Assembly (NCBI GenBank): GCA_050246035.1
Contig: JBFWWT010000003.1
Coordinates: forward strand, 34,684 to 98,683
Direction: 5' to 3'
Length of the DNA stretch: 64,000 nucleotides
Source of the DNA: Burkholderiales bacterium
GTDB lineage: Bacteria; Pseudomonadota; Gammaproteobacteria; Burkholderiales; SG8-39
The notes beneath the pieces were generated by a model. That model was not told where the DNA came from and made no database searches. It saw only the letters and a program-made list of their open reading frames with translations. Each line of letters opens with the position of its first letter. Position 1 is the stretch's first letter. Below, one piece after another: positions 21,484 through 27,021 of the stretch. The position numbers and the translations under genes are program-made.

Positions 21484-24400
21484 ATGAAGCCCGAGCATCC
21501 TCCCGCCGACGCGATCGTCATTCGCGGCGCGCGCCAGAACAACCTGAAGAACCTGAGCCTCGCCCTGCCGGCGAACGAGCTGATCGTCGTCACCGGCGTC
21601 TCGGGCTCGGGCAAGTCCTCGCTCGTCTTCGACACCCTGTACGCCGAGGGCCAGCGCCGTTACGTCGAGACCTTCAGCCCCTACGCGCGCCAGTTCCTCG
21701 AGCGCATGGACAAGCCCCAGGTGGACGCCATCGAGGGCATCCCGCCGGCCATCGCCATCGACCAGACCAATCCGGTGCGCACCTCGCGCTCGACGGTCGG
21801 CACGATGACCGAGCTGAACGACCACCTGAAGCTGCTCTTCGCGCGCGCGGCGAGCCTGCATTGCCGCGGCTGCGGCAGACCCGTGCGCCGCGACACCCCG
21901 CAGTCCATCTACGCGGCGCTGCCGCCCGCGAAGGTGACGATCACATTCCCGGTGCCCGTGCCGAAGAACTTCACCGAGAAGGAGGTGCAGGAGCTCCTGC
22001 AGCGCCAGGGCTACACCAAGCTCCACTCGCGCTCGAAGACCCTCATCGAAGTCGTGCAGGACACCGTGAACCCGGCGACCGCGGAGAAGTCTCGCGTGAT
22101 GGACGCCATCGAGGCGGCGTTGCGGTTCGGGCAGGGAAAATTGACCGCGCATGCAATTGGGGACGGACCTCAATTGAAAGGCGGCGAGGGTTTTGCCGTT
22201 GATACATCTGCCGACTTGGCCGGAAGCATCACCCGGCCAAGTCGGCAGACGATAGGAAAAGCAACGGAGGCGATACGGTTTTCCACTGCCCTCCACTGCC
22301 CCGACTGCGACCTCACCTACGCCGACCCCACCCCCGCGCAGTTCTCCTTCAACTCGCCCCTCGGCGCCTGCGAGACCTGCCGCGGCTTCGGGCGCGTGAT
22401 CGGGGTGGACTACGGGCTCGTCATCCCCGATGAGTCGAAGACGCTGCGCGAGGGCGCGATACGCCCCTGGCAGACGCCGAGCTTCAAGGAGTGCCAGGAC
22501 GACCTCGCCAAGTACGCGAAGAAGCGCGGCGTCCCGCTGGATACGCCCTGGCGCGAGATGAAACCCGAGCAGCGCCGCTGGGTGCTCGAGGGCGACGACG
22601 GCTGGGTGAGCTGGAAGAAGTCCTGGCCGGGCCTGTGGTACGGCGTCGGCCGCTTCTTCAAGTGGCTGGAGTCCAAGGCCTACAAGATGCACATCCGCGT
22701 GCTGCTCTCCAAGTACCGCGCGTACACGGAGTGCACGGCCTGCGGCGGGACGCGCCTGAAGCCCGACGCGCTGCTCTGGAAGATCGACGGCAAGGCGATC
22801 CACGACCTGATGCTGATGCCGGTCGCGGAGGTGCGGGGCTTCTTCGACGCGCTCGCGCTGCCCGCGCCCATGGACGAGGCGACGGAGCTCCTGCTCGGCG
22901 AGATCCGCACGCGCCTCGCCTACCTGGGCGAGGTGGGGCTCGGCTACCTCACGCTCGACCGCCAGTCGCGCACGCTCTCGGGCGGCGAGGTGCAGAGGAT
23001 CAACCTGACCACCGCGCTCGGCACCTCGCTCGTCAACACGCTCTTCGTTCTCGACGAGCCTTCGATCGGCCTGCACCCGCGCGACATGGGGCGCGTGATC
23101 GACGTGATGAAGCGGCTGCGCGACGCGGGCAATTCGCTGGTCGTCGTCGAGCACGATCCGCAGATCATGTTCGCCGCCGATCGCATCCTCGACATGGGCC
23201 CGGGGCCCGGCGAGCGCGGCGGCGAGGTGGTGTTCTACGGCCCGGCGGCGCAGATGCGCGAGGCGCGCACGCTGACGGCGGACTACCTCGCGGGCCGCAA
23301 GCGCGCAGAGCCGCCGCGCACGGCGCGCAATCCCGATCGCTTCCTCGAGGTGCTGGGCGCGGCCGAGCACAATCTGAAGGGTGTCGACATCGCGATTCCG
23401 CTCGAGCGGCTCGTATGCGTGACCGGCGTCTCGGGCTCGGGCAAGTCCACGCTCATCCAGGACATCCTCTACCCCGCGCTCCTCAAGGCGCAGGGCAAGC
23501 CCACCGAGTCGCCCGGAAAGCACCGCGGCCTGCGCGGCGCGCAAGGCGTCGGCGAGGTCGTCATGGTGGACCAGTCGCCGATCGGCAAGACGACGCGCTC
23601 CAATCCCGCGAGCTACGTCGGCGCGTTCGACGCCATCCGCGACCTGTTCGCGAAGGCGCCGGAGTCGAAGGCGCGCAAGTACACGCCGGGCACCTTCAGC
23701 TTCAACTCCGGCAATGGCCGCTGCCCCGCCTGCGGCGGCAACGGCTTCGAGCACGTCGAGATGCAGTTCCTTTCCGACGTGTACCTGCGCTGCGCGGATT
23801 GCAGCGGCAAGCGCTTCCGGCCCGAGGTGCTGGAGGTGCAGCTCGGCGGCAACAGCATCGCCGACGTGCTCCAGATGACCGTGTCCGAGGCGGTCGCGTT
23901 CTTCAAGGACCAGCCCGCGGTCGTTTCGCGCCTGCAGCCGCTCGCCGACGTGGGCCTCGACTACCTGCGCCTCGGCCAGCCCGTCCCGACGCTGTCGGGG
24001 GGAGAGGCGCAGCGGCTCAAGCTGGCGGGGTATCTGGGGACAGACCCCGTTTCCCGAAGCAACAGGGAAACGGGGTCTGTCCCCAATAGCGGCAAGCTGT
24101 TTCTGTTCGACGAGCCCACCACCGGCCTGCACTTCGACGACATCGCGAAACTCCTGCGCGCCTTCCGCAAGCTGCTCGCCGCGGGCCACTCGCTCGTCGT
24201 GATCGAGCACAACCTCGACGTCATCCGCGCGGCCGACTGGATCGTCGACCTCGGCCCCGAGGGCGGCGACGCGGGCGGCGAGCTCGTCTGCGCCGGCGTG
24301 CCCGAAGACGTCATGCGCCACCCCGCCTCGCACACGGGACGGGCGCTGCGCGAATATGACTCGCAAGCGCAACTGGGGACGGACCTCAATTTCGCGCAAA

Positions 24401-27021: not shown

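Follow-up and report, generated by a model that had tools for sequence, protein, structure and literature searches.

How four long DNA palindromes can lie inside the reading frame of one bacterial gene, and what these palindromes are, is the question raised by a 64-kb stretch of DNA from a Burkholderiales bacterium (contig JBFWWT010000003.1 of assembly GCA_050246035.1, positions 34,684-98,683; hereafter the window). The gene encodes a tandem double UvrA protein, and the palindromic segments, called inserts A to D, are part of its coding sequence. We consider it probable that the inserts derive, either as intact copies or in decayed form, from short non-autonomous palindromes of the REP (repetitive extragenic palindrome) or REPIN (REP doublet forming a hairpin) type, carried as passengers in permissive loops of the protein and, in some genomes, perhaps homogenised after insertion. 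In-frame REP-like palindromes in uvrA are already known in other bacteria: a catalogue of intragenic GTAG- and CGTC-tagged REPs published by Di Nocera, De Gregorio and Rocco in 2013 (BMC Genomics 14:522, PMC3733652) lists uvrA cases, contrary to a preliminary description of the present DNA, which knew of no report for UvrA or for a high-GC proteobacterium. The locus nevertheless illustrates clearly how a free-living bacterium of high GC content carries selfish palindromic DNA as part of a protein. What is new relative to the earlier catalogues is a graded series of relatives (58-100% identity), in which the same loops are reused, the DNA palindrome is strict while the peptide drifts and, in two relatives, the ends of the palindromes follow the genome and their centres follow the site.

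A tandem uvrA gene with four palindromes in frame

The host gene is the following:

21484-27021, + strand: intact open reading frame (ORF) of 1845 amino acids, two complete UvrA units fused in tandem

The Walker A sequence GVSGSGKS occurs four times in this ORF, with unit 1 corresponding approximately to residues 1-960 and unit 2 to residues 982-1845. Pfam matches to the 1845-residue protein comprised UvrA_inter (two stretches), UvrA_DNA-bind and ABC_tran, and all ATPase and zinc motifs were present. Residues 6-957 aligned end to end with the class I UvrA of Bacillus stearothermophilus (structure 2r6f; phmmer E 4e-244), and an AlphaFold model of unit 1 gave its best Foldseek superposition on 3uwx/2r6f (TM score 0.73-0.79). 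The ABC modules, the zinc modules, the UvrA-specific domains and the fold that characterize UvrA are thus all found in this protein, and the initial reading of the 5,538-nt ORF as two complete UvrA-like units with four GVSGSGKS sequences stands. A literature search on class III UvrA gave nothing of use, and this class label is not applied here. No database record of the exact protein was found, and the near-identical P0001/L097 was used in its stead. A protein search returned 8000 proteins at E<=1e-50, and more than 200 full-length orthologues, 58-100% identical to the 1845-residue protein, were obtained. In a species-level genome collection, 595 of 600 candidate stretches retrieved encode a relative, and the best 80 of the 595 constitute our species-level orthologue set. 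Four relatives, at 93, 86, 85 and 84% protein identity, are referred to below as L081, L082, L083 and L084, respectively. Close relatives keep the gene order around the uvrA-like gene, with NfeD, Band_7 and CoA-transferase genes upstream and EamA downstream. An antisense open frame of 1702 amino acids (21439-26547, - strand) opposite the UvrA gene is a shadow ORF typical of 70% GC DNA and was rejected as a gene.

The inserts belong to two families of repeats. Family 1 consists of 51-nt palindromes headed ATTGGGGAC, with ends ATTGGGGAC[A/G]GACC... and a variable inner hairpin; family 2 is a hairpin that is found inside a 192-nt composite element located elsewhere in the window. The coordinates within the gene are:

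22153-22275, + strand: insert A, residues 224-263; truncated composite of a family-1 left terminus, a spacer and a family-2 hairpin, right terminus missing
22207-22249, + strand: family-2 hairpin inside A; arms 22207-22223 / 22233-22249, 17 nt, 100% matched, 9-nt loop
24035-24085, + strand: insert B, family-1 palindrome of 51 nt; arms 24035-24055 / 24065-24085, 21 nt, 100% matched, 9-nt loop
24374-24424, + strand: insert C, family-1 palindrome of 51 nt; arms 24374-24397 / 24401-24424, 24 nt, 100% matched, 3-nt loop
26668-26736, + strand: insert D, residues 1729-1751; family-2 hairpin 26688-26722, arms 26688-26703 / 26707-26722, 16 nt, 94% matched, one mismatch

The four inserts are the lowest-GC 60-nt windows of the UvrA-like gene. 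The G+C content of third codon positions (GC3) is 0.50, 0.68, 0.78 and 0.52 in A, B, C and D, respectively, versus 0.945 for the other 1743 codons of the gene, and the composition of the inserts is therefore not that of the native coding sequence. Calculated RNA folding energies were -36.3 kcal/mol for the A hairpin (z -9.1), -47.1 kcal/mol for B, -49.7 kcal/mol for C and -24.2 kcal/mol for D, with z-scores of the four inserts ranging from -5.2 to -11.1. Seven palindromes with a stem of at least 15 were found in the entire window, and four of the seven are in this gene. The left terminus of A, ATTGGGGACGGACCTCAATTG, lies at 22155-22175, and the whole insert makes the protein about 30 residues longer at this site than most orthologues are. 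B corresponds to residues 851-868. C corresponds to residues 964-981 and forms the linker between units 1 and 2, at a place where other orthologues have the common linker ..EPAGRYLGNAIR. D, a family-2 hairpin alone, is in the unit-2 loop homologous to site B. The preliminary description had correctly recognised four AT-richer palindromes in frame and had translated them as we do. Its perfect arms in B and C are indeed perfect, but they measure 21 and 24 nt rather than 20 and 23, and its treatment of A to D as one type of element has to be abandoned, since B and C belong to family 1, D is the family-2 hairpin and A a composite that lacks its right end.

With T-GGGGAC and GTCCCC-A taken as its ends, the family-1 unit has a length of 51 nt, or 17 codons, in 11 of the 14 copies that were measured in six genomes. 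In either orientation, all three frames of B-type copies and two of the three frames of C-type copies are free of stop codons; the earlier count of two stop-free frames thus applies to the C type but not to the B type. A unit of 17 codons that is stop-free in two or three frames will often leave the ORF open upon insertion. In insert A the family-1 core is translated GGG-GAC-GGA. Removal of the segments in the manner of inteins or introns was rejected: they measure 17-40 codons, splicing motifs are lacking, and every relative keeps them in frame.

Could the inserts be produced by faulty assembly, or the gene be a decaying pseudogene? The window comes from a metagenome-type lineage, and a second contig that covers the gene ends about 120 nt after D, two points in favour of such a reading. 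This second contig, JBFXFX010000075.1 (L097; NCBI assembly GCA_050178625.1), is nonetheless from an independent assembly and is 99.94% identical to positions 13627-26845 of the window (13.2 kb), with one single-nucleotide polymorphism within the gene, outside the inserts, and with all inserts identical. Homologous inserts are present in JGI, ENA and NCBI assemblies of relatives; the ORF is intact, its ATPase and zinc motifs are complete and its GC3 is 0.945. We regard an artefact or a pseudogene as extremely improbable, and the assembly error that had been named in advance as a possible objection did not materialise. The end of L097, at window position 26845 inside the gene, may be a repeat-induced contig end.

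Placement of the inserts in predicted flexible regions

Alignments with the 80 species-level and 120 closer orthologues placed inserts A to D, without exception, in the most length-variable regions of the protein. On the 2r6f structure, A falls in the turn that precedes the second pair of cysteines in the first zinc module (..IGEG-ELLFSEKHACPYCG), B in the loop AAELHRRSNGRTLYILDEP, which leads from the signature helix (LSGGE) to Walker B in the second ATPase domain of unit 1, and C past the C-terminus of unit 1. In AlphaFold models, a predicted local distance difference test score (pLDDT) below 50 was assigned to residues 227-260 (A), 854-867 (B) and 964-981 (C), and to model residues 770-792 (residues 1729-1751 in the numbering of the protein, exactly D). 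Each of these segments is flanked by confident strands or helices; that of A, for example, lies between strands 219-224 and 263-267. The alignments and models support the view that the inserts occupy permissive, predicted disordered loops or, in the case of C, a linker, and the mapping onto loops or linkers anticipated in the preliminary description was borne out. For the purposes of annotation and protein modelling, such low-complexity loops should be viewed as repeat-derived and not as functional motifs.

Copies of the same repeats between genes

The core sequence TGGGGACNGAC, with at most one mismatch allowed, occurs 17 times in the window versus 4.05 times expected, and none of 100 shuffled sequences reached 17 occurrences. 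Four elements outside the uvrA-like gene contain it:

47391-47582, no strand assigned: MITE-like composite element of 192 nt, intergenic, with the FBPase and SWIB genes on either side; 22-nt family-1 termini, family-2 hairpin 47456-47504
38794-38842, no strand assigned: family-1 palindrome of 49 nt, intergenic, flanked on either side by the stop codon of a convergent gene (NnrU and its downstream neighbour)
50940-50990, no strand assigned: family-1 palindrome of 51 nt, intergenic, between convergent genes; outer arms identical to those of C
58977-58995, no strand assigned: minimal unit ATTAGGGACTGTCCCCAAT, 19 nt, just the two termini, REP-like singlet; the intergenic gap here is 16 nt

(MITE, miniature inverted-repeat transposable element.) The composite at 47391-47582 links both palindrome families into one element. 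Its termini are identical to family-1 arms, its internal hairpin reads TCTCCCCTTTTTCTGGCCGG..., and the outer arm of the D hairpin, TCTCCCCTTTT, is common to D and to this internal hairpin. Insert A aligns with the left two thirds of the composite, which is its full-length relative.

The ends of the palindrome at 38794-38842 abut TAA at both sides, and the gene downstream of it is a 4HBT thioesterase gene, as judged by synteny with L081. An orthologous copy is present in L081 (24530-24588). In L082 the site is empty (24390-24400), and the two stop codons overlap (ATTAGG). This comparison of filled (window and L081) and empty (L082) sites is a single one, compatible with duplication of TA and not proof of it. 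The minimal unit at 58977-58995, which lies between a glutamine-synthetase-type gene and a solute-binding-protein gene, could be either a REP singlet or an excision footprint.

The presence of the same core between genes had been noticed before, together with a count of four copies in the gene and about five elsewhere. The former number is correct and the latter is four, because the pair TGGGGCCGGAC / GTCCGTCCACA at 31100-31159 is a chance match in a lipocalin-like gene, where it encodes the ordinary protein sequence MGPDARGVLHYSADGKVSVH.

Database searches with these repeats returned little. An Rfam scan of the whole window matched no family, and a full-text literature search for the core sequences returned unrelated primer matches only. 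A metagenome scan with TGGGGACGGACCTCAATT yielded 12 loci, 11 of which were chance matches in unrelated genes (RND pumps with FDVGTDLNS, for example); the only true relative was L094. A protein search with concatenated translations of the elements produced 160 candidates sharing words with the query, none of them at E<=10, the method being too insensitive for matches of 17 residues.

Recurrent filling of the same sites in orthologues

JGI, ENA and NCBI assemblies of relatives with 84-93% protein identity have palindromes at the same four sites. Of the idea, to be checked according to the preliminary description, that the segments are lineage-specific indels, the part on indels holds, the loops being rich in them, while the part on lineage specificity does not, the palindromes at all four sites being shared with these relatives. 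The presence of B varies among orthologues, close relatives included. B is present in P0002, P0003, P0004, P0006, P0012 and P0032 and absent from L001/P0014, P0008, P0009 and P0017; L001/P0014 and P0008 read LAGHLTLQAGAERK at this site, without the insert. In the 80 species-level loci, all six in-gene palindromes with a stem of at least 15 (in L001, L002, L011 and L030) map to sites A, C or D. The palindromes in these loci belong to differing families, with GAAAGGGGTCAGGACCCTTTTC... in L002, GGAAAAAAGGGGACATTCTCC... in L030 and TCCCGAAGGGAGAGGGGAGG... in L011/L012. At site B, L058 reads NGDTPN..NGDTPNF, which matches the intergenic AAAATGGGGACACTCCGAATTT palindromes of the same locus (9236-9285 and 11308-11365). 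At site A, L062 reads SRHPREGGDP..LDSRLRGND, a peptide characteristic of the CGTC-1 dimers in the REP table of Di Nocera et al.

In 121 close orthologues, the 13-nt core GGGGnCnGnCCCC is read in all three frames, as GDSP/GDRP/GDGP, as GTDP/GSDP/GSVP and as RGQSP/RGQTP/RGQDP. Motifs of this kind were found at site A in 68 proteins, at site B in 66 and at site C in 57, and their density at the four sites is about 21-fold that of the remaining protein, a figure that is indicative only, because the motif set was picked after the data had been seen. Different frames at one site cannot be converted into one another by substitution and must therefore come from independent insertions. These data indicate that the four loops of the tandem UvrA have been hit recurrently, by different repeat families and in three frames.

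Complementarity of the arms is kept while their sequence changes

Sites B and C of L081-L084 have the same site-specific inner arms, which mark them as the same copies. Pairing between arms was scored in twelve aligned 51-mers. Overall, 98% of the cells were paired, 12 of the 21 pairs had changed on both sides, and 47 cells were compensated, while no one-sided changes of the G-U type were seen among the pairs of these 51-mers. The constraint is therefore on Watson-Crick complementarity of the DNA and not on stability of an RNA fold. The orthologous A hairpins of L001, L081, L082 and L084 behave in the same way: their sequences differ, and their arms are still complementary, with at most one mismatch.

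These observations bear on the notion that the segments are native loop-coding sequence, made palindromic by selection on the peptide (GTDP...GSVP and the like) or by chance in a high-GC gene. Such peptides do occur in many orthologues, loop lengths vary naturally, and the inserts at site B are within the range of the family. The notion is already contradicted, however, by a GC3 far under that of the gene, by the same DNA between genes, by a core read in three frames among orthologues, by peptides that change while arm complementarity stays and by folding z-scores down to -11; we hold it to be highly improbable.

A different explanation is that the hairpins are functional, with roles in ribosome pausing at domain boundaries, in mRNA stability or translation control, or as a repair-linked DNA structure, and that genes of the uvrA type are their preferred hosts. 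Palindromy at the four sites does indeed persist, through compensated changes, in proteins that are 84-100% identical; the hairpins are highly stable (-24 to -50 kcal/mol); C stands exactly at the unit boundary; and no coding copy lies outside the UvrA-like gene in the approximately 142 kb examined from five related genomes. Di Nocera et al. also doubt that repair genes are chance targets; many species have no other REP-tagged genes (PMC3733652). On the other hand, the same elements are also found between genes, B is wholly absent from the close relatives P0008, P0009, P0014 and P0017, and in other lineages unrelated palindrome families stand at the same sites. A role at the RNA level would allow G-U pairs, and none were seen; the sites are the most length-variable ones even in orthologues without palindromes; and Opitutus terrae has about 70 intragenic REPs in many unrelated genes. 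We therefore think a function of the hairpins quite unlikely and return to the view that they are REP-type passengers.

Comparison of copies within and between genomes revealed a further regularity. In the outer arms (positions 3-17), B and C do not differ at all within L082 or within L083, while their inner arms differ at 4-6 positions. Between genomes, orthologous copies show 4-5 differences in the outer arms; in the inner arms there are 0-3 differences at B and one for C of L082 versus L083. Thus, in L082 and L083, the outer arms follow the genome and the inner arms follow the site, a pattern that points to homogenisation within genomes, as we infer from the alignments. Two further cases involve L081 and the D hairpin. 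The intergenic copy of L081 at 24530 is the same as L081 C in both arms and differs only beside the loop. The arms of L081 D (15212-15253, at 93% protein identity) are the arms of L081's own A (CATCTGCCGACTT) and are unrelated to those of the D hairpin of the window (26688-26722), which is near-identical to that of the more distant L082 (15199-15233, at 86%). Resemblance of the D hairpins is thus discordant with the gene tree.

Comparison with known repeats

The closest published cases are the REP-decorated uvrA genes of Di Nocera et al. (PMC3733652), and the present gene is one of them in that its dispersed palindromes are wholly inside the uvrA ORF and in frame. In Thioalkalivibrio, Tgr7_1444 is annotated as an excinuclease ABC A subunit with REP dimers at residues 865-887 and 1761-1783; its length of 1889 residues identifies it as a double UvrA. 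In O. terrae, Oter_3168 (999 residues) has REP dimers at 224-239 and 440-462, and Oter_2709 (1995 residues) has REPs at 638-644 and 1601-1623. Judged by residue numbers and not by alignment, the Tgr7_1444 dimers fit sites B and D (851-868 and 1729-1751; spacing of 896 versus 878 residues), and positions 224-239 of Oter_3168, again by residue number, fit site A (224-263). Like the inserts described here, the REPs of that catalogue are in-frame palindromes, mostly inverted dimers, at more than one site per uvrA gene, and add 15-30 residues; those located between genes, like ours, lie between convergent genes beside stop codons. They differ in carrying a terminal GTAG (or CGTC), while the present family is headed ATTGGGGAC and is without GTAG. 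The published uvrA cases have two sites and the present one has four, and orthologous copies, which Di Nocera et al. did not trace through graded relatives, are traced here.

REPs of the CGTC type have a terminal CGTC or TGTC, a stem of 8-9 bp that starts from A-T pairs, a loop of 4-5 nt and a short CCA tail, and are mostly head-to-head dimers (PMC3733652). The sequence GGTC[C/T]GTCCCC of the present family does contain CGTC or TGTC, which is, however, internal, about 7 nt from the end. The stem of the singlet ATTGGGGAC.GTCCCCAAT comprises 9 bp and begins with A-T and T-A, and a CCA tail is lacking. Assignment of the family to the GTAG or to the CGTC superfamily is not established.

REPINs (Bertels and Rainey 2011, PMC3116915) have inverted conserved ends of about 16 nt and a less conserved, hairpin-forming spacer in which compensatory changes are common. 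The elements described here have the same architecture, i.e., an inverted doublet with conserved ends, a variable hairpin spacer and compensatory changes, and both groups include genome-specific variants and singlet remnants. REPINs are, on the other hand, described as extragenic, about 110 nt long in SBW25 and built of REPs with GTAG (PMC3116915), while the present elements are shorter, partly genic and without GTAG. High copy number, mostly outside genes, is a further trait of REPINs; the 64 kb of the window contain four intergenic and four genic copies. A classic GTAG-tagged REP of a different family, GTAGGGTGGGCCAATGGCCCACCCTAC, is present in L081 (17925-17951), downstream of a DEAD-box helicase gene, and has no counterpart in the window.

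Rickettsia palindromic elements (RPEs; Ogata et al. 2000, 2002), as far as they are summarised in PMC10969869, are selfish palindromic repeats found in frame in functional genes and also between genes, with inserts predicted at places where the fold tolerates them. By the same summary, RPE-1 is about 150 bp long, AT-rich and found in the reduced genomes of obligate intracellular alphaproteobacteria, whereas the host here is a betaproteobacterium of 70% GC and the palindromes are near-perfect and 51 nt long. No likeness between the two is apparent by eye, and length, base composition and host set them apart. The proposal that the inserts are selfish in-frame DNA of the RPE kind is nevertheless upheld by their foreign composition, by their location in hypervariable loops with pLDDT<50 and by their intergenic counterparts.

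Lastly, MITEs (for example Correia, ERIC and Nezha) resemble the composite at 47391-47582 in having terminal inverted repeats (22 nt here) and no coding capacity, and in-frame fusions of intragenic MITEs are on record. In contrast to MITEs, whose inverted repeats enclose unique DNA, the common form here is a full palindrome. MITEs further derive from an insertion sequence and have a target-site duplication; a search for a parent insertion sequence of the present elements gave none, and the one pair of filled and empty intergenic sites is compatible with duplication of TA.

A possible course of insertion and upkeep

A scenario that would account for these features begins with repeats of the REP/REPIN type populating this lineage of uncultured Burkholderiales, mobilised by an enzyme that would act in trans and be encoded outside the window. 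An insertion would persist only at places where 15-40 additional disordered residues do no harm to the protein. Such tolerant places would be, for A, a beta-hairpin turn with which the UvrB-binding-like domain ends; for B and D, the loop from the signature helix to Walker B in the C-terminal ATPase domain of each unit; and for C, the inter-unit linker. The encoded peptides would be passengers and not selected sequences. Inserted copies may then undergo short-patch gene conversion together with hairpin-templated correction, or be repeatedly replaced by the current master copy of the genome. Finally, they would decay to remnants such as GSDP, GDSP and RGQSP, kept as loop residues.

Several observations weigh against this scenario. 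REPs of the RAYT type flank a single-copy gene for a RAYT (REP-associated tyrosine transposase, a Y1 transposase) in the same genome. No transposase or RAYT was detected by Pfam among the approximately 46 ORFs of the window, and the mobility of the elements is therefore inferred. The GTAG tag, which defines RAYT-associated REPs, is absent from every copy. Where B or C is lacking, orthologues show other loop residues instead of a precise gap, and the gene thus offers no clean pair of empty and filled sites. Four or five genomes underlie the genome-versus-site pattern of the arms. Homogenisation, moreover, is not universal: of the 15 outer-arm positions, 4 distinguish B from C in the window, as they do in L081.

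A bolder proposal holds that UvrA-type genes are preferred, non-random hosts of REPs across phyla, and that an active process at the DNA level, such as gene conversion, repair templated by the hairpin or replacement by a transposase, keeps the in-gene copies perfect and homogenised with the other copies of the genome. This we judge unlikely. If it were true, two separated peptide segments would co-vary for reasons unrelated to the protein, and repair capacity might itself be affected by the association, a mutator idea raised in 2013. The locus and its relatives provide a system for two questions: why uvrA and other repair genes recur as hosts of REPs, and how dispersed palindromes are homogenised.

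One more palindrome of the window is unrelated to those described above. It is 25 nt long, has a G+C content of 100% (CGCGCGCCGCGCCGCGCGGCGCGCG) and is located at 48063-48087, between the SWIB and pyridoxamine-phosphate oxidase genes.

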